Shown in pieces: positions 3,330-64,000 of a stretch of DNA of 64,000 nucleotides. The translations under genes and the position numbers were made by a program. How positions within the stretch are numbered: the first letter of the stretch is position 1; each line of letters starts with the position of its first letter. The DNA lies in contig NW_015162476.1 in the NCBI RefSeq assembly GCF_001447785.1, positions 1,533,562 through 1,597,561 of the forward strand, given 5' to 3'. The stretch comes from Gekko japonicus. Lineage: Eukaryota. A model generated the notes under the pieces. The model was not told where the DNA came from and made no database searches. It saw nothing but the letters and a program-made list of their open reading frames with translations.

Positions 3330-3750
3330 TGAGGGAATGCAGCCCGGTCTCACCAGCTCTTGGAAGATAAGCAGGGTCAGTACTTGAAAGAGAGACTACC
3401 AAGGAAGACTCTGTGGAGGAAGGCAATGGCACAGCCAGCATGGTGTAGTGGGTAAGACTGACTAGTATCTGGAAGAGCCAGGTTCTAATCCCCACTCGTG
3501 CCATGGAAACTTGCTGAGTGACCTTGGGCCAGTCACACCCTCTCAGCCTAATGCTCCCTCAAAGGGTTGTTGTGCAGATAAAATGAAGGACAGAAGAAGG
3601 ATGTAGGCTGCTCTCGGTCCCCATTGGGGGAAAAGTGGTGTATAAATGAATTTAGATCAATCAATCAATAAATCACCTCTGCTTCTCGCTTGTCTTGAAA
3701 GCCCCCTGCTGAGGTCACATAAGTCAGCTGTGACTTGAAGGCACAATCAC
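3330..3750 (+). mobile_element. 5S rRNA-headed SINE interrupted by a Squam3-type SINE (3431-3672)
   Basis: 5S-like gaagataagcagggtcagtacttg, then ggcaatggca|...|aatcacctctg split by a tRNA-head SINE (gccagcatggtgtagtgg...gtgaccttgggccagtca). Confidence 0.7.
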
Positions 3751-4767: not shown

Positions 4768-4898
4768 AGGTTGCAGTCACTCACACTAAATAATACACTT
4801 TTGATCCACTTTCTAACTGAGCTTTACTGCGTGAACTGGCGAAACCCAGTTTGAAAGTGCACTGGAAATGGATTATCTAGTGTGTGTGACCGCAACCT
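4768..4898. mobile_element. Short palindromic MITE (PIF/Harbinger-like); related copy at ~46195-46295
   Basis: Terminal inverted repeats aggttgcagtcactcacacta ... tagtgtgtgtgaccgcaacct. Confidence 0.65.
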
Positions 4899-5021
4899 CA
4901 TTCTCTATGACCTTGCACATGGTATACACTTAGTAGTTTGAAAGTGCACTGAAAATGGATTATCTAGTGTATGTGACCGCAACCTCATTCTCTATAACCT
5001 TGCACATGGTATACACTTAGT
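4848..5021. repeat. 87-bp tandem duplication covering the MITE right end and its flank
   Basis: 4848-4934 and 4935-5021 are near-identical. Confidence 0.92.
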
Positions 5022-7948: not shown

Positions 7949-8661
7949 TGTAAGGTTCATAGTGCTGCTATACACAGAGAATGTGGTCAAGGGTGTTAGA
8001 TCGCACTAACAAAGGACTCTTAGAGTGATTCAGCAAGTGATTCAGCTTTATTGGAAGTAACGAACAAGCACTCAACTTAGTAAGAAACCAGAACAGAAAA
8101 CAGTGGGAGCTTATGCTCCTTTTAAACATAACCGGGCTAATGTAGCCACGCCTATTTACAAATAACAACCAATACTAACTCAGCTTGGAGGGAACATTGG
8201 TTAAGGGAACATTAATGTAGCTATTGACTGCTAAAAAAGGTAAAGGTAATGGTTCCCTTGCTCGAAAGCCAGTCGAATCCGACTCTAGGGTTGCGGTGCT
8301 CATCTCCGTTTCAAAGCCGAAGAGCCAGCACTGTCCAAAGATGTTTCCGTGGTCATGTGGCCGGCATGACTAAACACCAAGGCGCATGGAACGCTGTTAC
8401 CTTCCCACCAAAGTGGTACCTATTTATCTACTTGCAATTTCTTGCTTTCGAACTGCTAGGTTGGCAGGAGCTGGAGCTAGAGATGGGAGCTCACTCCATC
8501 ATGCGGCACCCGGGTCTCGAACTGCTAAACTACTGACCTTCCACAGCCTGCAGTTCAGCGTCTTAACCACTTGAGCCACCGCAGCTCCATCTACATCACA
8601 TACATGACTGCTACATCACAGCATATGATTCCTCACCATCAATACTTGTCCATTCCTTACA
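7949..8661 (-). mobile_element. Solo LTR (~330 bp without the insert) carrying a nested Sauria SINE
   Basis: TGTAAGG...CCTTACA ends and a minus-strand AATAAA. Shares ttca.caagtgat.tcagctttatt with the LTR at 30872. TSD not preserved. Confidence 0.6.
8234..8604 (-). mobile_element. Sauria (Squam1) SINE
   Basis: Full body with (ACCTTT)n tail and core ccaacctagcagttcgaaa...gtagataaataggtacc. TSD tgactgcta at 8225-8233 and 8605-8613. Confidence 0.9.
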
Positions 8662-18523: not shown

Positions 18524-19081
18524 GTTGTTAGCTTTCCTCCAATCTTAGCTGCTCTGTCATCAGGCTTTACTTAACTAAACATGATTGCAATTATTAGCAG
18601 AAATAGTGTCATATTAAGGTTTCCAGGTCCCCTCATTGCTTGGGGGGGATTGGGGGGGGCATTCCGGGGTTGGTGTGAATGCCCCAAACCCCACCCCCAA
18701 GAGTGACCACCCGTGCAGCCACCCATTTCCCTCCCCTCCTGCCTGATTTAAAGGGCTTCAGCTGATCAGCGGGGACCACATGGCCCACCAACCAACCCTT
18801 TAAATCTTGCAGGCAGGAGGGAGAAGGGCAGTTGTGGGTAAACTAAATGTAAGTAGTAGATCCAGTTCACATTAAAGTTGCAGTCAAAAGAAGAGAAAGA
18901 AGCCTAATCTAAAGAGCACTTTCCCTATCACAAATGGCCAGCTTGTCCAGCATCATGTTTAGTGAGAACCGTGTATCTACAGGAGAGACCTGCTGTAAGT
19001 GTGTGAGAGAGGAGAGGTCAGAGGGCAGTTCCCAGGTAAAGAAGCAGAAGACAAATTTTTGTGTCTGGAATATACACTTAC

Positions 19082-19670
19082 GGGGAGCGGTGGCACAGAG
19101 GATTTATCCTCTAGTTATAGTAACATCTGAGCTGAACAGTACCGCTGTCAGTTCTAGCCCCATGCTGGTGTGAGCTACCAGCCTTGCCCCCAGCTCGCCA
19201 TCCACCCAGTGGTTCGAAAGCTTCGGCGAGTAGATAAATGGGTACCACTCCTTAGAGAGGGTGGGCACACCAAAAAAAACCCCGGTAGGGGAGGTGTTAG
19301 CCGTCGAACAGAATGCTCAGCTTGCAAGATCGAAAGCCTAAGAAAAATCTCTTCAACTCCGAGAAGCCTGTAATGGGCCATTCCGGCCAGGTGGTGGCAG
19401 TGCGGCGCTGCAACTCGAAGACCTGGAGAAGCTGACGTCATCTAGCCAAGCCAAAGTGAATATGCCACCGGAACACGTCTGACCCTGCAGCTGAACAAAT
19501 CCCCGCCGGTTGCGAACGTGTGTGATTTAAAAGATATATGTTGTCCTCCCTTACCCCCATAAATCATTGTTAGTCCCGCGTGAATGAGTAACTGTAAATC
19601 GCTCAGAGCTAGCAAGCTCTGCAGGATTAAGCGATTAATAAAACTGAAAGATGATTATTATTATTATTAT
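19082..19670 (+). mobile_element. Chimeric SINE: tRNA-like head + Sauria-like central domain + unrecognised ~330-bp body + L2-type 3' stem-loop + (ATT)n tail
   Basis: GGGGAGCGGTGGCACAGAGG (A box) and gtgagct...ccccagctc...gttcgaaa...gagtagataaatgggtacc align with the Sauria copies. The tail is gtaaatcgct...agcgattaataaa followed by (att)n. Confidence 0.75.
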
Positions 19671-20048
19671 TTTAAAGTGAGCTCTGACTCACAAAAGTTT
19701 ATGCTGGAATAAATGGTACCACTGGACTCCTGTGTTATTTTGCTACTGAAGACTAACCTGGCCACCCATCTGGAATTTTCATCATGGATTCCAATGCCAG
19801 AAAGGTCCTATCTACCAGGGACTGATTGGTGTTTTAACAGGAAAGTTTTCAGGGAGCTGCTGCCCTAGAGGGCCACTGGCAGCCAAGAACAAGTTGGCAT
19901 CCATCAAAAGGCATTAAAAAAAAGTCCTAAGAAATAATTTTTAAAAGGAGAGGAGTATAATTTTTTGAGGGTGGGGGAAAATGCATTTTTACAATTGTTT
20001 GGACAAGATATTAATAACAAGATTTGTTATTGTTTGGACAAGATTTGA

Positions 20049-22147: not shown

Positions 22148-22350
22148 AGGGAGGGGCTGTGGCTCAGTGACAGAGCATCTGCTTGATGTGCAGAAGGTCC
22201 CAGGTTCAATCTCCAGCATCTCCAATTACAAAGATAAGGTAGTGGGTGATGTGAAAGATCTCTGCTTGAGACCATGGAGAGCCACTGCTAGTATTGACCT
22301 TGAAGGACCAAGGGTTTGATTCAATATAAGGCAGCTTCATGTGTGTTCAT
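22148..22350 (+). mobile_element. tRNA-derived SINE with a CR1-like tail; another copy at ~44712-44920 (-)
   Basis: ggggctgtggctcagtgacagagca (A box), ggttcaatctcc (B box), and a tail ggacca...tgattca.tataaggcagcttcatgtg. Confidence 0.75.
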
Positions 22351-23823
22351 GTGTAAAAACACTTGCTGGGCACCAGAAATGGTGTCAGCAGGTGCCCCGG
22401 TGCCTACAGGCACCACATTGGGAACCCCTTTTCTAAAGGTTAGCTGTGTAAGTCTGTTGCAGTATAAGCTGTCGAGTCAGATACGGAGTATATAATCTTT
22501 TTGGAGACATCTGTATAACCAAAATTTTAAATGGGGGCAAGGGGGCAAGAGTGGGAGACTACTTGGCCTAGCCCCCTCATTCCCTGCCACTGTTTGACAG
22601 GCGAGTGGGGGAGAAATGGGGGTGCGATTCACCATTGTACAAATGCAGTGTCACTTTTGGTGTGAAACTGAAAGCGTTGTCATCATATTGGGGCAATGCG
22701 CTAGGATTTACTCAAAACTATGCTTTAACCATAGAAATTTAGGTGACTCCTAGAGTGTTGGCTGGACACGGTGATGTCACTTCTGGTTTCACGCTGCAAG
22801 GGACGTTGTGCCTTTGACTTGACATCACGGCTTGTCTCACCCAAATTCTCCCACCAGGGTGTCAGCTACCGTAGGTAAGGGAAAAGCTGTAGCTTTAGCA
22901 GAGAAATCCTGTTGTAAATCATTCAAGTGTGAATCCCTACAACAGGTATATGTCTGCTACCCTCCACTGCCCACCTACTTGTAATATGACTCCATTCCTT
23001 TAATGGTGTCCCCCAGGTTCAATCTCCAGCATCTCCAATTACAAAGATAAGGTAGTGGGTGATGTGAAAGATCTCTGCTTGAGACCATGGAGAGCCACTG
23101 CTAGTATTGACCTTGAAGGACCAAGGGTTTGATTCAATATAAGGCAGCTTCATGTGTGTTCATGTGTAAAAACACTTGCTGGGCACCAGAAATGGTGTCA
23201 GCAGGTGCCCCGGTGCCTACAGGCACCACATTGGGAACCCCTTTTCTAAAGGTTAGCTGTGTAAGTCTGTTGCAGTATAAGCTGTCGAGTCAGATACGGA
23301 GTATATAATCTTTTTGGAGACATCTGTATAACCAAAATTTTAAATGGGGGCAAGGGGGCAAGAGTGGGAGACTACTTGGCCTAGCCCCCTCATTCCCTGC
23401 CACTGTTTGACAGGCGAGTGGGGGAGAAATGGGGGTGCGATTCACCATTGTACAAATGCAGTGTCACTTTTGGTGTGAAACTGAAAGCGTTGTCATCATA
23501 TTGGGGCAATGCGCTAGGATTTACTCAAAACTATGCTTTAACCATAGAAATTTAAGTGACTCCTAGAGTGTTGGCTGGACACGGTGATGTCACTTCTGGT
23601 TTCACGCTGCAAGGGACGTTGTGCCTTTGACTTGACATCACGGCTTGTCTCACCCAAATTCTCCCACCAGGGTGTCAGCTACCGTAGGTAAGGGGAAAGC
23701 TGAAGCTTTAGCAGAGAAATCCTGTTGTAAATTATTCAAGTGTGAATTCCTACAACAGGTACATGTCTGCTACCCTCCACTGCCCATCTGCCTATAATAT
23801 GACTCCATTCCTTTGATGGTGTC
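22199..23823. repeat. ~812-bp tandem duplication (22199-23010 / 23012-23823)
   Basis: Direct comparison gives an offset of 813 and near-identical copies. Confidence 0.95.
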
Positions 23824-27677: not shown

Positions 27678-27972
27678 AAAGGTAAAGGTTTCCCTTGCTC
27701 GAAAGCTAGTCAAATCAAATTCTAGAGGGTGGTGCTCATCTGTTTCCAAGCTGAAGAGCCAGCGCTGTCCAAAGATGTTTCCGTGGTTATGTGGCCAGCA
27801 TAACTAAATGCAAAGGCACATGGAATGCTGTTATTTCCCTATTTATCTACTCCAATTTCTTGCTTTCAAACTGCTAGGTTGGCAGGAACTGGGGCAAGAG
27901 ATGGGAGCTCACTCCATCATGCGGCACTAGGGTCTCGAACTGCCGAACTACAGACCTTCCGGTCTGCAGCTC
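27677..27972 (-). mobile_element. Sauria SINE (5' truncated, internally deleted)
   Basis: aaaggtaaaggtttcccttgctcgaaagc... same family as 8234. Confidence 0.85.
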
Positions 27973-30537: not shown

Positions 30538-31222
30538 AGGTTTCCCTTGCTCAAAAGCTAGTCAAATCTGACTCTAGGGGGCGGCGCTCATCTCCGTTTC
30601 CAAGCTAAAGAGCCATTGCTGCCCGAAGACGTTTCCGTGGTCATGTGGCCAGCATGACTAAATGCAGAGGTGCACAGACCGCTGTTACCTTCCCACCGAA
30701 GCAGTACCTATTTATCTACTTGCAATTTTTTGCTTTCAAACTGCTAGGTTGGCAGGAGCTGGGGCCAGAGACGTGGGCTCATTCTGTCATGTGGCACACT
30801 CGGGTCTCAAACTGCCAAGCTACAGACCTTCCAGTCTGCAGATTCAGCATCTTAACCTCTGAGACACTGTGTGTTAAGTATGACACGTAACTCGGAGGAA
30901 CAGTTCAACAAGTGATTTCAGCTTTATTCAGTGAGAATAGCATAAAGGCTCAGCCTTGTAAGGACTAGACCAGCTAGACAATTTCCATAAGCAAAATGGC
31001 AACTTATATACAATTCTGGCTGGGATAGCCACACCTACAATGTTTTACAACAACCAATCACATTAGGTATGTTACATCCAATCACAATCAATACATAATG
31101 TCCAATCAAAACCATTCCCTCCAGAATGCACACCATTGGTCAGTATTTACAATCCGCATAATGAGTGAAGCTAGATTAGGCTTTTACTATTATGTCTCTC
31201 AAGACATAACACTGTGGCCCCA
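30538..31222 (-). mobile_element. Sauria SINE interrupted near its 5' end by a solo LTR
   Basis: 13-bp TSD tagagcagaggta at 30525-30537 and 31223-31235 brackets SINE plus LTR. Confidence 0.9.
30872..31211 (-). mobile_element. 340-bp solo LTR
   Basis: TGTTA...TAACA termini, perfect 5-bp TSD CTGTG (30867-30871 / 31212-31216), and minus-strand TATA-like and AATAAA signals. Confidence 0.85.
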
Positions 31223-38381: not shown

Positions 38382-38596
38382 AGGTAAAGGTAAAGGTTCC
38401 CTTGCTCGAAAGCCAGTTGAATCCGACTCTAGGGTTGCGGTGCTCATCTCCGTTTCCAAGCCGAAGAGCCAGCGGTGTCTGAAGATATTTCCGTGGTCAT
38501 GTGCCCGGCATGACTAAACACCAAGGTGCACGGAACACTGTTACCTTCCCACTACTTGCAATTTCTTGCTTTCAAACTGCTAGGTTGGCAGGAGAT
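38382..38596 (-). mobile_element. Sauria SINE 3' part
   Basis: aggtaaaggtaaaggttcccttgctcgaaagcc... Confidence 0.85.
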
Positions 38597-42875: not shown

Positions 42876-43030
42876 ATGGCCCAGGCTAGCCTGATCTTGC
42901 CAGTTCTTGGAAGTGAAGCAGGATCAGCCTTGGTTCGTACTTGGATGGGTGACTTCCAAGGAATGCCAGGGCCATGATGTAGAGGCAGGCAATAGCAAAC
43001 CACATCTGAAATATCTCTTGCCTCGAAACC
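42876..43030 (+). mobile_element. 5S rRNA-headed SINE (SINE3 class); further copies at ~45895-46125 (+), 59010-59213 (+) and ~63472-63665 (-)
   Basis: gcc.gatct.gtc..atctcggaagctaagcaggg....tggttagtacttggatgggagac (5S A and C boxes) fused to an RTE/BovB-like tail ggca.tggcaaaccacctctg. Confidence 0.8.
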
Positions 43031-43057: not shown

Positions 43058-46000
43058 TAACGCTAAAGAGCTAGACCTTCTTGGTGCCAGACAATCTTAG
43101 GATCTCCTGGCTATACTACACACAATACCATACAACAACAATAATAATAGTCGATAGATGGATGCTGGAGGGACACAACTCCTCTATAAGACAAAGGCAT
43201 ATTATAGATATTGCACCTATACTGCTTCTATACATTGTGCATACTGGGCGCCCCGGATGAAGGCAAGCATTGCTAACCCCAATATGGTGTGCATTCGAGG
43301 CCGGCTTCCTGCTTTTGACATTTGTCATTAGACAATTTGGCCAGCAGAAGCTCTGCTGCTAATACGCACACTTCTGCATTTGCAACAGCAGTGAAAGGAA
43401 CATGGAGACTCCTCAGTGTGGAAGCAGCTCTACATAATTACTTCAGTCTTTTGCTGCCTCCCTTCACAAAGGCTGTTTTCACTCTGGGGAATGGACTGCT
43501 GGAGGTGGTCCACATACCTCTGCCACTTTCAGCTTTGCAGAAAGTGTATAAAAGTTTTATTGGAGAGAGCTTTCTGTGATTCTTACAGAAGGAGTTTGTG
43601 CTGAAGCTGAAAGGTTGCTTGAAGCCCAGGAACTAAAAAGGTCTTGAAGCAGAGGCTTATATGATTTTTTAAAAAAATTGTGATTGCTTATTGTGTTGGT
43701 GGTTTGCAGAGCAAATGTGATTTTATTGTATTTGTAAGATTTTCTGCACTTATGAGGAAAGAAAAAATAAAGCATTATGGGACAGCCAATCAGAATGGTA
43801 TAAACCCAGATTGTGGTTAACACTACAACAATTTGTTCCTGAGTCCAATCCCAGTGAAAAAGCTGTACATATGGGTGTGACCAATGCATCCACAGCAGGC
43901 TCAGTGTTTCAGTACATCCCCCATACACAATGCAAATGTCTTGGAATGGCTTTTCCATCCAATTGCAGTGGTGCTCAAAGACATAAACAAAGAAGTCAGG
44001 CCTTTGACATGAGGGCACCTCGCAATTCCAAAAAGTTGTACCCGGATGTTCCCTTTAAAAAGAGAAAATACACAAGTTACTTCATGTTTAGATCTGCCTT
44101 TACAGAATTACTTGGAGAACAAGTACTGGAAAGGTTCCAGGGTTCAATGGGATTCTGGACTCTGAGAACCTTTACCCCAAATATCAAAAGGGTATGAATT
44201 CTGGGGAAATTCAGGATAGCAAGATACACATATCAGGAATATGGCAAGAGTCTGCAATTTTTTTGCTTACAGAAGATGGAGGATTCTCTTTTCATCTTCT
44301 AACAGCATTTTATAATAATCTTTATAGCTACTTTGCCTCTGGAAGGCTTGACATAAGTGCTCCCACTACTGTAAAATTTGCAATTCTTGATGTTAGTTTT
44401 ATATTAAACTAGCCAAGTGCATCTTGTCATGTCTCCTACATTACAATGTGCTTCCCTCACCTCTTATCCAGTCATGGCTGCTGCTTGCTGCACTTCCAGA
44501 ATACTTTTGCTGGGAAAGCACGTGGGTTGCCAGGCTACCATTGTTACACAGCCAAGGAGGGCCACAAAGATCTTGCCAAGCAGTGGTGGTCTGTGATAAT
44601 ACAATGCCCTTCCCCAACCGTTTTCACTATACACCAACTTTTGTGCTAGGTGTCCAATATCATGCCTTCCTAGAGGAGCCAGTGTGACATAAACTAGCTT
44701 GTACATATGTGGTACACATTAAGATGCCTTATACTGAATCATACCAGTGGCCCATCAAAGTAAGTATTGTCTACTCAGACTGGCAGCAGCTCTCCAGGGT
44801 CTCAGGAAGAGGTATTTTACATCACCTACCATGTGATCCTTTCAACCAGATATGCCAGGGTTTGAACCTGGAACCTCCTGCATGCCAGGCAAATGCTCTA
44901 TCACTGAGCCACAGCCACTTCTCCATAACCTAGAATCATAGAGTTGGAAGGGGCCATACAGACCATCTAGTCCAACCCTCTGACCTGATCTAGTTACACT
45001 TTAAACTGTGGTTGCGGTATATGTTCAGAGGTTAACATTTGGGTGTTCCCACAAGCAAACAGATACCTCAGTACTGAAGTAGACCCACAGGGGCCAATAT
45101 AATTTCCGAACAGTCCACTGTGTCTGCTACCATGAACCTTTAAGATATGTGTTGGTGAAAGCCAAACAGATAAAGATTTAAGTTAAGGGTCGTGTACTTC
45201 CTGAATGTTTAGCTCTATTACACTTAATATAGACTAAGCCATCCTTAATCCAACCTTACATCACAGAAGAGATCCACCTAGGAAATTAATCCCAGATTAA
45301 GTGATCCAAAATAACTAATGATGCTTTGACTAGTTTGGAAAATCTCAGGACCTTAATTTAAAATATTAGGGAACCCAGCCAAATCAGAACCCCAAATACT
45401 CCAAAATTTTAACCCCCTTCCAAATCTCCTCTGAATCCTAGTGTTCATATACACATTCCAGGAGTACAGTATACACACATATTGTTTCTGATGGCATTCA
45501 GTGTGCTAGGCACCTGTGCCTTGCCACTCTGCTTTGAAAAGCCTCCAGCAATTAAGGCTGCAAATTCATAACCGCCAGCCCTAATGAAACCGATGTACAA
45601 GCTACAGAGTCTGCATTACTTGCCCCCCCCCCAGGTGGGTAAAGGGGCTCCTGCAGCATCCCCTGGATTGAACAACCATGCAGGCAGCAAAAATACCCCC
45701 GACAAGGGAAGGGGCTCTGCATATCTCAGGGATTCCTTAGGTATACCAAAAACATTACTTTGGCAATTAACTTAAAAAGTCAATGTCAGAATAAGCTCAA
45801 GGAGCAAAGAGTGTTGAAAGTGAAGGATAAGGGAGAATGGGGGAGAGGGTAACATTTGCCCACTTAGGCCGCTCAGAGTGGGAAGGTGGAATGCTATAGC
45901 CCAATCTCATCAGTTCTTGAAAGCCAATGGCTCAGGCTAGCCGGATCTTGTCAGATCTCAAAAGCTAAGCAGGGTCAGCCTTGGTCAGTATTTGGATGGG

Positions 46001-47748
46001 AGACCATCAAAAAAGTCCAGGGTTGCTACACAGAGGCAAGCAAACCAACTCTGTCCCTGTCTTTCCTTGAAAACCCCATGAGAGGTTACCATAAGCTGGC
46101 TGTGACTTTACGGCACTTTCCACCACCACCACCGAGGAGGATCTGTCCCTCTGCTTCCCACCTGCCTTGAAAGCCCCTCGCTGGGGTTACCATGGTGCCT
46201 TCACACATGCTAAACAATGCTCTTTCATTTCACACAGTAGAATCCAGCTGCAAAGTGGCTTGAAAGTGCATTACTTAGTGTGTGTGAAACAGCCCAGCCT
46301 AAGTGGGATGTGACTTAACCGCACTTAGTCCCCTCAGAACTCTGAAGGGACAGATCTTTCCAAATTGTCCCTCTAACCTCTGATTTCTCTCCCCCACTGC
46401 CCAAGAACTGAACTCAGCGAAGGAAATAAACTGTTTGGATAGTTTTCACACATGGCACTAAAAAACAGCTGTCTTGTTACCAGTGAATGTTTTCAATGAG
46501 GGCCTGAAAGGGTGTGTGTGTGTCAATTTATATACCCATTCACTAATGTAGGGTTATCATTCCCATTAAATACAGGCCAATTTGAACCTTCTCTTTCCGG
46601 TGCTCCCTAAGAAGTGTTTTTGTTGTCAAGTACAATTTATAGATTTGCATTTCCCCACCTCTGTAATTCTAAGCGGCTACAATGTACCTTTGATTTTCAC
46701 CTCCTCCACTTCCTATCCATTCCACAGAACGCTCAAAAACAGAAGTCCAGACATTCTTCCTTCCTCCAAATCCGCGGCCATGACTTGTGAACCCTCCTAA
46801 AAGCCCCGTGGTTTTAGATTCGAAGCTTTCGAGACAGTCACCCCTCCACGAGAAGAACACTCGTCTTTCACGCTCCGCAATGAAAAGGGGGGGAGGAGAG
46901 GAAAAAAAGCTTCACCCCCTTCCCATCTGAACAACTCCTCCTTTCCTCCACAAAACAAAAACAGCAAAGGTGGACGGGGGGGGGGGGGGGGGGGGGGAAG
47001 AGGGGTGTTTTGGGAAATGACCAGTCAACTGAAGGCGCCGCCGGAGCCCAAGAAGATCCAACCCCTCCAACCTCCTCCCCCCCCCCCGGCCGCAGCCCTG
47101 CATAGAGGGACGTGTCTTGAACTACTGCTGCTACTGCCGCTGCGAGGAACACGCAGGCGCGCTCCTTCCTCACCCGCCTGGAGCTCTTTCCTGTTCGTTC
47201 TGTAGCAAAGCGGGCGGCTACAGTGACTGGCAAGGCGAGACCGCCCCCGCCCGCTAATGAGATGCACTCGCTGGTCGCTGCTGCGGCCGCGGCCTTAAAG
47301 GTTCGCTAGCGGGCGAGACGATGCTGCTGACAGTATCGGCGGCACAAGGAAACCGGGGCTCCGCGTTGCTCGCCAAGGAAGGCCCGCCACGCGGAGAGCG
47401 GCAGCCGAGCACGGCGGGGTCGCCTTTCCTTCCTTCCCCGACGCCGCCCTTCGCTTGAGGCGAAGCTCTCGGTTCCTCTAAGGCTGCTCGTTCAACCAAA
47501 CCCTCTCACAAGCACTCCGGGGAAGGATGCCACCCGCCCTCGTCAGCCTCCCCCCCCCCCTTTGCACTGCTGCAATTTCTGCTTTGTTTCTCTGAGCAGC
47601 AACAGTCGGAGTCCCCCACTCCCCGCCATCCTCTACCCAATCCCGAAAGGTGCTAGCGCGCGTGGTTGCGAACACCTGAGAAAAGGAAAAGGGGGGGGGG
47701 GGGGGGGGGGGGGGGGGGAGTTTCAAGGGGTGTCCTCTGCCTTGACAG

Positions 47749-57189: not shown

Positions 57190-57535
57190 GGGCCACGGTG
57201 GCACAGTGATTAAGACGCTTAGCTGCAGACAGGAAGGTCTGTAGTTCGGCAGTTCGAGACCCGAGTGCCATGTGACAGAGTGAGCGCCCGTCTCTGGCCC
57301 CAGCTCCTGCCAACCTAGCAGTTCAAAAGCAAGACATTGCAAGCAGATAAATAGGTACCGCTTTGGTGGGAAGGTAACAGCATTCTGTGTGCCTCGACGT
57401 TTAGTCATGCCGGCCACATGACCATGGAAATGTCTTCGGACAGCGCTGGCTCTTTGGCTTGGAAACGGAGATGAGCACCGCCCCCTAGAGTTGGATTCGA
57501 CTGACTTTCATGCAAGGGAAACCTTTCCCTTTCCC
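57190..57535 (+). mobile_element. Full-length Sauria SINE in PPP3CA intron 1
   Basis: gggccacggtggcacagtg head to aaacctttccctttccc tail, with a ~14-bp TSD taagaaca.g.aaa. Confidence 0.9.
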
Positions 57536-58562: not shown

Positions 58563-60337
58563 TTGTGGTCTTCTTACAGGTGGCTCACTATGTTTTTGTA
58601 GTTGAATGCAACATCCTGGCGAGCCTCTCTGGCCAGCTCTACTCGTCTCAGTAGGTATGTCAAGTCACCAAGGAGCCAGCTGGGATGTTGTAGTTGCTAT
58701 GGTAACTTCATTGCCTTGGCCAAACCTGGAAGACCCATCATCATTCCTCTTAGCAGGCCTTTCAGGCCCATGGAGAAAGATGGAAGCAAAGCTGCCAAGG
58801 CTGAAGAAGCCTAGTGGAACATTGTACTTGTTGTGGTGGCCCTAGAATACAGGCCAGTGTCTCAAGCCTTGATGGCACCACCACCACTTCCCTATCAGCA
58901 GGCCTGACACACTGAGAAACGTGGCAGAAAAGCCTGCCAGAGACCTGTGGTCACTGCTGAAAGTTAATTTGGAATGCTTGCTCAGTTTGTTATTGGTAAG
59001 GAGGAGGATATGGCCCAGGCTAGCCCTATCTTGTCAGGTCTCGGAAGCTAAGCAGGGTTGTCCCTGATTAGAATTTGGATGGAAGACAGCTAAGGTAGTC
59101 CAGGGTCGCTACACAGAGTCAGGCAGTGGCAAACCACCTCTGAATATCTCTTGCCTTGATAACCCCATGGGGGTCACCATAAGTTGGCTGCATCTTGAGA
59201 CACTTTCCACCACAAAGGAAGAAGTATCTGCTATGATTTCCTCATAGGAGCCCTCTCTGGAGTTAGATTGGAGAGTAAAACTTGAAAACGTATGCCGTCT
59301 CACACAAAGACATCTGAACTGCCAATCTCCGATCTGAGTTATTAGCTCTAGCTGTTGCCAGGACAATAACTAAAACTGAGCACATGCTGATCTGCAGATA
59401 TATGAGTGTGCACTGTTAAATCATGTGAGGTTCTTGTGTTTTATGTTCGTGATAGGGAGCAGAATGGAATTGCTCTGTGGGTGTGTAACACAAGGTAGCG
59501 TACATTTATCAGCAGATCAGAGTTCAAAACATTTGAGAACCACTAGCTTAGGAATCAATTTGGGTAATTTTAAATTTAATCAAGGGCTATTCTGTACTGG
59601 ACTGCTTGAGCTTCTATATTCTTCAAACTATTATTACATTTAATTTTGGCTGGAAAATAAAATCTAAATGCAAAATATTGGTATCTGGGTTTGTTTGTCT
59701 TTTTGCAGTTGGAGCACTTATATGTTTCAGTTTATTTTTTAAAAAAATTCAGCTGGTAATTGGAAATGTGCCTTTGATAGTATTTAAGTGCTAAGCAACA
59801 TTATTCAAACATGATAAAGAACGCTTAGGGCTATGTTACTTATAAATCTTGTTGAAGCTACATTCATTGCTCTTTCATATCCTTCAAGAAATCTCATAAA
59901 GACAAATGAATGAAGCCACAGCTTGCAAAGGTGGATGCCACTTCAAGGAAGAATATGCCAAGTATGTTATTTATGTGGTTACATGATCACAGATTTTAAA
60001 GAAGCACCTTTTTTTGTCTTATGTCAAACAGCTTCTGAGTTTTCAGTTACCTTTTACGGAAAATGAAACAAGACCTGCACTTTTATGGTCTAATGCAAAT
60101 ATGAGCAGAGAATTAAAACACAGAATGTTTAATCCCTTCTTTTGGGATGGGGACCCTCTAAAGAAATGAAATGTTGCAGAGTATTGCTATTCTTTTTAAA
60201 ACAAAGCAAAGCTAGAGGATCAGCCTAGCTGACTTGATGCCTTGACCAGCACTTCTTGCTGTTCTCAGGCCTGGTGCCACAAGGATTTGTAGATTCTTTG
60301 TGCTGCACAGGTATGGAAACCTGCATTATTACAAAAT

Positions 60338-63430: not shown

Positions 63431-64000
63431 GGGTTTTTTGGTGCGGATTTTGTCTGCACTGTGTGCAGTTTTCAGCAAACTTGTCACAGCTGACTTATGA
63501 CAACTCCATAGGGTTTTCAAATTAAGAGACGTTCAGAGGTGGTTTGCCATTGCCTGTCTCTGTGTAGTGACCCTGGTATTCCTTGATGGTTTCCCTTCCA
63601 GGTACTGGCTAGGGCTGACCCTGCTTAGCTTCTGAGATCTGATGTGATTGGGCTAGCTTGGGCTTTCTGCTGGTCAGTTAACTAGAATAGACTCTTATCC
63701 ACAAGAACCAAAGCTCACTAGGTAAGAACTTCCTTTCTTGAACACCATACATACTAAATATATGTAGAAGCACTATGGGTGTCGGTTTTGTTTAGGTAAA
63801 AACAGGAATTGAGCATTAATGAAACAGCATCTATAAAAGGAATTTACGTTTAATCCAAGCTGAGTTTTGATACCTGTGCTAGCAGGAGGCATGGTTTTTC
63901 TGACCCAGTGAAATTTCTCAGTAAAATAGATCTGGTTAATCCTCAGTAAAATAGGTCTTGCAAGTTAGTCCTCAGTAAAATAGATCTGGTTGACAAGTAA

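Follow-up and report, generated by a model that had tools for sequence, protein, structure and literature searches.

The CORE domain of CORE-SINEs was reportedly described by Gilbert and Labuda in 1999. In its published form it measures 65 bp, and CORE-SINEs are stated to share only the 5' 45 bp of it (PMC4824008). The functions of SINE central domains "remain unknown" in the words of the same source, which names RNA stability as one possible role, and their role is called "still unclear" in PMC11481361. The closest published counterpart concerns the V domain, for which a hairpin has been predicted (PMC4758252); a tandem-pseudoknot fold for CORE was not found in the open full-text literature, although an earlier description is possible. 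For reptiles, Squam1, 2 and 3 are given independent origins in PMC10702118, and SINEBase classification may already place Squam1 under a known domain.

Here we analyze a SINE within a window of 64,000 nt from Gekko japonicus (contig NW_015162476.1, positions 1,533,562 to 1,597,561), in which an initial annotation had proposed a covarying fold common to two SINE families. Comparison of sequences shows that the body of this element is colinear with that of Sauria-type copies and likely derived from the CORE domain. On balance, we favor a model in which this presumably CORE-derived body folds as two stacked H-type pseudoknots, likely a stabilizing scaffold whichever LINE copies the element.

Results

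The element and its relatives in the window

The element (Table 1) is single in the window and high-copy in the genome, as judged from DNA reads at 85% likeness. Read depth is about 2,400-2,500 over 19190-19257 and 3-7 in the flank at 19768-19850, which reflects the high interspersed copy number expected of a tRNA-derived SINE. The start of the head aligns with Sauria-type heads in a comparison within the window, loose read ends pile up before 19082, and the family read depth climbs at 19088. The head, with its degenerate B box, gave no match to the Rfam tRNA model. Around the element no exact target-site duplication of at least 6 nt was found; the (ATT)n tail is present. We tentatively take this tail to be of the L2 type from its resemblance by eye to the tail in the BivaCORE-SINE2 supplement, and it has no significant match to other SINE tails in the window. 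In the RNA data, both strands are about equally represented in run X21, and such runs cannot reveal a polymerase III transcript.

Table 1. Positions of the element, its predicted helices and the Sauria-type copies in the window
Feature	Positions	Strand	Description or basis
SINE element	19081-19670	+	About 590 nt: tRNA-like start, domain, middle, (ATT)n tail
tRNA-like head	19081-19163	+	A-box-like start, degenerate B box
Hairpin A (stem 1 of pseudoknot 1)	19164-19182	+	5-bp stem 19164-19168/19178-19182, 9-nt loop
Pseudoknot 1, stem 2	19172-19196	+	19172-19176 (GAGCT) with 19192-19196 (AGCTC)
Hairpin B (stem 1 of pseudoknot 2)	19198-19212	+	3 bp and a closing T-G/C-G pair
Pseudoknot 2, stem 2	19204-19243	+	19204-19208 (ACCCA) with 19239-19243 (TGGGT)
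22-nt insert, loop 3 of pseudoknot 2	19213-19234	+	TCGAAA junction and hairpin C (19220-19227)
TAAA	19235-19238	+	Adjoins last pseudoknot strand; predicted minor-groove strand
Hairpin D	19245-19264	+	Folds here and in two of three Sauria-type copies examined
Family-specific middle	19265-19590	+	Multi-copy by reads; no similarity to Sauria-type copies
3' stem-loop and (ATT)n tail	19591-19670	+	Fold computed; L2-type by resemblance
Sauria-type copy, domain	8414-8500	-	Similarity and alignment
Sauria-type copy, domain	57274-57360	+	Similarity and alignment
Sauria-type copy, domain	30702-30788	-	42 bits with model R2; absent from R2 training
Sauria-type copy, domain decayed at 3' end	27833-27918	-	41.7 bits with R2; absent from R2 training
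Sauria-type copy, hairpin B fragment	38577-38594	-	Copy 5'-truncated and internally deleted

Against the window the domain shows similarity above the chance level, 72% over 101 nt (E 3e-8). Positions 19164-19247 are 70-75% identical to four Sauria-type copies and a fifth retains a fragment, none of the five having the remainder of the element. The initial annotation had held loops and junctions to be fixed between the two families. The TCGAAA junction of the Sauria/Squam1 body is indeed shared, as are all helices, whereas the linker after hairpin A varies between families, and the middle of the head, the stems and the 3' part of the element differ from Sauria. The label Sauria-type for the five copies is an assumption taken over from the initial annotation; copies of this type point to a squamate host. 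In length, and in having tails of the ACCTTT type, they match the account in PMC10058329, and the 3' part of Sauria is linked to Bov-B in PMC13295347; that of the present element is not Sauria-like.

Other repeats lie nearby. A distinct high-copy repeat, seen in the reads, occupies 18855-18958, immediately upstream of the element. Within the element, loose-end reads reveal a subfamily with another small hairpin after the A run at 19273-19300, and short deletions in such reads join about 19270 to about 19370. Elsewhere in the window, the heads of another SINE family (22153-22224, plus strand; 44853-44913, minus strand) reach the Rfam tRNA score, its copies aligning over about 200 nt. A further repeat family, at 42876-43030, 45927-46126, 59010-59213 and 63483-63663, has a start that, by eye, we presume to derive from 5S rRNA. 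Near-perfect tandem duplications at 22199-23823 (812 nt, 98.6%), 402-710 (154 nt, 100%) and 4848-5021 (87 nt, 96.6%) are possibly assembly artefacts.

Families carrying the domain

Related families were sought with patterns in which the letters of loop A, of TAAA and of three among the five pairs of stem 2 of pseudoknot 2 (knot 2) were prescribed; these patterns left free the stems and the partner strand of pseudoknot 1 (knot 1), 19192-19196 being free in all patterns; some of the fixed letters were taken from the reptile copies. The metagenome scan returned at least 106 stretches, some of them duplicates of one another, with 92 in three flank groups, 3 SINE-like by eye and 11 without SINE context. 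Four of the 15 matches from a genome-collection scan were SINE-like, and a search of their five source genomes yielded 15 matches, further variants included. One of four matches in a further scan was SINE-like (L189). Other pattern scans gave SINE-like matches at 0 of 3, 0 of 1, 0 and 0 of 9, and 1 of 61, the last already known; blastn of plasmids returned no match. We infer that the matches are animal DNA in the assemblies.

Alignment A4 holds 13 sequences selected by hand, namely three window copies and ten loci, with M1a and L006 excluded for their extra gaps. A2 holds 18 hand-picked CORE-type loci and no reptile sequence, and in A3, where hairpin A is misaligned, counts were restricted to hairpin B and knot 2. 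For family M1a, a loop length of 8 nt was adopted in parsing once its sequences had been inspected.

Pairing and covariation

Two H-type pseudoknots in series are predicted for the domain, with lengths of loops 1, 2 and 3 that fit this class, in which a short loop 1 and a loop 2 of 0-1 nt precede a longer loop 3 (3/1/9-13 nt in knot 1 and 2/0/4-30 nt in knot 2). Over the 19 pairs of the four helices, 94.6% of 242 cells in A4 are paired, and slid partners pair at 32-38%. Both sides change in 12 of the 19 pairs, a count reached by 2 of 500 shuffles that ignore the relatedness of the families. The initial annotation had suggested a covariation analysis, and the covariation seen here supports the idea put forward there that SINEs which differ in their 3' parts make use of one selected RNA module with pseudoknots.

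The individual helices contribute unequally. Hairpin A covaries in all five of its pairs (89% paired in A4), in a form redrawn with 5 bp and a 9-nt loop because the top pair of the 6-bp stem first proposed is A-C in the copy at 8.4 kb. The pairing of its loop with the downstream strand, at first only a suggestion, proved to be 95% paired, with two-sided change in three of five pairs and G-C/A-U swaps at two positions. Hairpin B begins 0-1 nt past knot 1 and is present in both families as claimed. It is 96% paired with two-sided change in three of four pairs, and its stem appears as CAG:CTG, CTG:CAG, CTC:GAG, TTG:CAA and CCA:TGG. The loop-B pairing, ACCCA:TGGGT here and ACCTA:TAGGT in the Sauria-type copies, was likewise confirmed at 98.5% pairing; since the search pattern fixed three of its five pairs, knot 2 rests in the alignments on one varying pair, which is found as C-G, U-A and A-U.

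Hairpins C and D, also part of the fold first proposed, are present in the sequence and have no covariation support. Hairpin C, found in too few families for covariation to be judged, has 2 bp in this copy and is missing from its minimum-energy fold. Hairpin D was rejected as a general feature of CORE, as it does not rise above shuffles in most non-reptile families.

For the CORE-type loci of A2 taken by themselves, 90.1% of cells are paired and the covariation score is 0.387, a value that none of 500 shuffles reached. The number of pairs changing on both sides and the number of pair types do not exceed the shuffles (57 and 50 of 500). In an unbiased ranking of 1668 column pairs, the proposed pairs take 8 of the first 10 places; when only the seven non-reptile families are ranked (1784 column pairs), they take 8 of the first 15. 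The p-values of this ranking are too small, as they treat pairs as independent. Stem A, the loop-A pairing, stem B and the loop-B pairing are the top four distinct helices among 783 possible helices of 5 bp; at 4 bp, a rival pairing of the knot 1 partner with the last strand ties with knot 2. Limited to structures free of knots, RNAalifold predicts stem A and the knot 2 helix. Four large families have 67-100% of free positions paired per helix (the anchors being fixed), and 22 context-free matches have 27-41% (stem A, 42/110; knot 1, 43/110; stem B, 27/66; knot 2, 6/22). In small groups and single copies some helices are broken, with pairing down to 53% in stem A of M4, 40% in stem A of L106 and 20% in knot 1 of L006; both L106 and L006 break knot 1, and M3 has U-U in stem B. 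The families sampled, about ten and related, are too few for a phylogeny-aware test.

It is conceivable that no RNA fold has been selected at all and that the likeness is plain inheritance, or belongs to a DNA-level element with incidental palindromes. CORE copies are described as acting as enhancers in mammals (PMC4824008), and folding of single sequences is weak, with z-scores of -1.71 for this copy and -0.49 for the copy at 8.4 kb and minimum-energy folds that favor other pairings. Some of the compensation may be CpG decay. Among the best 40 of 343 difference rows, reads carry G at 19200 in 1758 of 2117 cases and C at 19210 in 2031 of 2440, so stem B is rich in C-G in the family, and its A-T form in this copy is a double change at two CpG sites that may have arisen in this way. 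The same rows give T at 19187 in 1905 of 1947 reads; in 1694 of 2351, one more A follows 19235. In the consensus of 402 loose-end reads, loop A ends in A rather than T and the fifth loop-A pair is therefore lost. Against the absence of a fold, the stems diverge and yet pairing persists in four helices, and G-U cells exceed A-C cells by 24 to 2 (9 to 2 without two pattern-fixed pairs), an excess that marks one strand and points to folding of the sense strand. We therefore consider a purely inherited or DNA-level likeness very unlikely and a conserved fold highly probable from the aligned sequences.

Relation to the CORE domain

The central domain follows the head directly, as in CORE-SINEs, and its motifs are colinear with those of CORE once an insert is allowed for. 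The BivaCORE-SINE2 consensus (supplement of PMC4824008) shows by eye a hairpin, a partner strand, a 3-bp hairpin with an AC..A loop, TAAA and a complementary strand. It shares with the gecko domain the position after a tRNA-like head, the motif order, the four predicted helices and the loop lengths of knot 1, and adds U-A at a second varying position of knot 2. This colinearity with SINEs of other animals was absent from the initial annotation, which had likened the domain to that of MetaSINEs; the pair ACTCA:TGAGT is found in the BivaCORE-SINE2 consensus and not in the bivalve Meta rows examined, and CORE is the better match. The 5' part of the Meta/MESC domain, inspected by eye, resembles knot 2 in having a hairpin with ACC in its loop, a run of A residues and the strand GGTA; in the bivalve consensus rows, no knot 1 and no extended match (66 bp at 61-86% identity) were seen by eye.

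The reptile domain differs from CORE in loop A, which reads GTGAGC where CORE has TTG(G/A)GC, and in the insert of 22-26 nt before TAAA. This insert is absent from CORE-type families and measures 26 nt in the Sauria-type copies and, at the same place, in L189. TAAA is kept with or without the insert, its letters being fixed by the search pattern. In L189 (297-383, minus strand), the insert-bearing knot 2 comes without a knot 1 partner, and the 3' part resembles by eye a Sauria-type tail.

With a three-block CORE profile that allows for the insert, scores of 32-36 bits were obtained for the present element and for three of the Sauria-type copies; the comparison is partly circular because the pattern behind the training set took some of its letters from reptile copies. 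The element itself reaches 35.4 bits, the best of 60 shuffled windows 28.2, and the decayed copy at 27.9 kb does not surpass the shuffles. A covariance model built from CORE-type loci alone (R1) recovers the reptile copies only as fragments at E 0.6-3.7 (L189 at E 0.016), and the domain therefore stands outside CORE membership in the strict sense. Together with the bias of the search pattern and the independent origins reported in PMC10702118, the failure of R1 on the reptile copies could be taken to mean that the reptile domain is structured and arose separately, or that the letters in common stem largely from the pattern. In the plain MAFFT alignment of A4, nevertheless, the stretch from hairpin A through its partner strand to hairpin B matches the CORE-type loci without a gap, and BivaCORE-SINE2 has the same motifs independently of the scan. 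A separate origin thus appears improbable, and the reptile body is probably homologous to CORE, as far as sequence comparison allows this to be judged.

Discussion

The predicted arrangement may be placed into the context of a SINE transcript. In a polymerase III transcript, the loop of hairpin A would pair with the strand that immediately precedes hairpin B, and the loop of hairpin B with the strand after TAAA. As the two knots lie 0-1 nt apart, they could form one stacked rod behind the tRNA-like head. In H-type pseudoknots a loop strand lies in the minor groove of a stem, and TAAA may occupy that of stem B. Inserts would be tolerated in the loop-3 strands alone and be mostly self-contained hairpins there; those observed are hairpin C in loop 3 of knot 2 and, within the knot 1 of Squam3-like copies, an extended hairpin. 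A rod of this kind would be expected to withstand nucleases and to prevent mis-pairing of head and tail, so that more intact RNA may reach the LINE reverse transcriptase. A scaffold working with any LINE would allow the domain to outlive changes of tail and partner.

Partial losses of the domain are informative here. L213 and L214 keep knot 1 and then switch domain, and L189 keeps only knot 2. Since successful SINEs exist without one or the other knot, neither is essential, and each appears to be a separable module. The sharing of only the 5' part of CORE (PMC4824008), and the report that domains are not minimal units, fit such losses. In L213 (1501-1574) and L214 (1501-1557) the 5' CORE half is followed, by eye, by a Deu-like domain, which also begins with a hairpin and TAAA. 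Squam3, stated to have lost 32 nt of CORE (PMC7983390), is represented in the window by copies so labeled by eye at 3518, 16527, 37802 and 42607 on the plus strand and 6328 on the minus strand, which keep hairpin A and its partner CAGCC(C/T). In the four that were parsed, the spacer measures either 7 nt or 50-52 nt, and the longer version is predicted to fold into a single hairpin with a z-score of -3.16. For a module that is helpful, dispensable and indifferent to its partner, a stabilizing, insulating scaffold suits best, and stabilization as the main job of the predicted fold is a proposal we make tentatively, at slightly less than even confidence.

A tandem of pseudoknots also calls catalytic RNAs to mind. 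The HDV ribozyme is a nested double pseudoknot with a catalytic C, and its relatives at the start of RTE, Ingi and R2 LINEs, the HDV-like ribozymes, place two pseudoknots in retroelement RNA, as is predicted here. Neither the nested topology nor the catalytic C was found in the gecko domain, which is internal and whose supported helices are serial; the HDV, twister, pistol and glmS topologies presumably all fail to fit. A ribozyme was one of the options named in the initial annotation; a self-cleaving one, of the sort found at RTE and Ingi 5' ends, would account for two pseudoknots with constant unpaired purines, and LINE 5' ends both carry ribozymes and supply SINE bodies (PMC5786205). As argued in that source, however, cleavage would separate the element from its promoter. 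In two RNA runs, read ends do not accumulate within the domain, a weak proxy as libraries are usually fragmented. An Rfam search, which had also been suggested, gave no match of the domain to a ribozyme or an Xrn1-resistant RNA, whether at gathering scores or with E relaxed to 10; in the window at large it returned two unrelated tRNA-like heads at gathering scores and two chance matches at E up to 10. Self-cleavage is, on this evidence, extremely improbable.

The edges of the domain could instead point to a barrier for reverse transcriptase, at which pausing would promote template switching and the joining of new tails and modules. Families diverge right past GTAC, and L213 and L214 right past knot 1; CORE has been proposed to aid exchange of 3' ends in work cited by PMC4758252. 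Blocking full-length copying would, however, be a cost that the element bears at every round of copying, any selection on the domain would leave divergence at its edges, and the family read depth falls only about twofold from the domain to the head. We regard a barrier function as improbable.

The main rival to a scaffold is docking, in which the head and the stacked pseudoknots would attach to the ribosome, or to a protein of the host or of the LINE, and bring the RNA close to newly made reverse transcriptase. Alu RNA is held to be brought beside newly made reverse transcriptase by SRP9/14. The loop letters TG.GC, ACC.A, TAAA and GTAC are far more constant than the stem letters, as would be expected of a recognized surface, although this constancy is partly imposed by the search pattern. 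In tobacco mosaic virus, the tRNA-like domain and the stacked upstream pseudoknots bind 60S and 80S ribosomes (bioRxiv 2025.10.12.681957), and the sequential pseudoknots of the tobamovirus upstream domain are compactly stacked beside the tRNA-like domain, as is predicted here. The likeness is one of analogy: no sequence relation is shown, the viral RNA is translated, and the order is opposite, with tobamovirus knots 5' of an aminoacylated 3' tRNA mimic and those of the SINE 3' of a 5' head. Docking seems unlikely, though likelier than the other rivals.

Beyond the stabilizing scaffold that we favor, it could be speculated that CORE is a conserved tandem-pseudoknot module of which the Sauria-type body and the present element are unrecognized derivatives, that knot 2 recurs in Meta, and that several "independent" domains are one shuffled module which docks SINE RNA on ribosomes or shields it, as a counterpart of Alu and SRP. 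This wider proposal is doubtful as a whole. A model at the level of base pairs nonetheless makes testable why SINEs of animals as different as fish and molluscs retain the same central domains, and the predicted fold supplies natural boundaries to the partial losses and exchanges seen in CORE. The abundant Sauria-type SINEs may be reclassified in consequence. Mammalian MIR copies are CORE-SINEs, and if they share the fold, numerous transcribed and exapted elements would be concerned.
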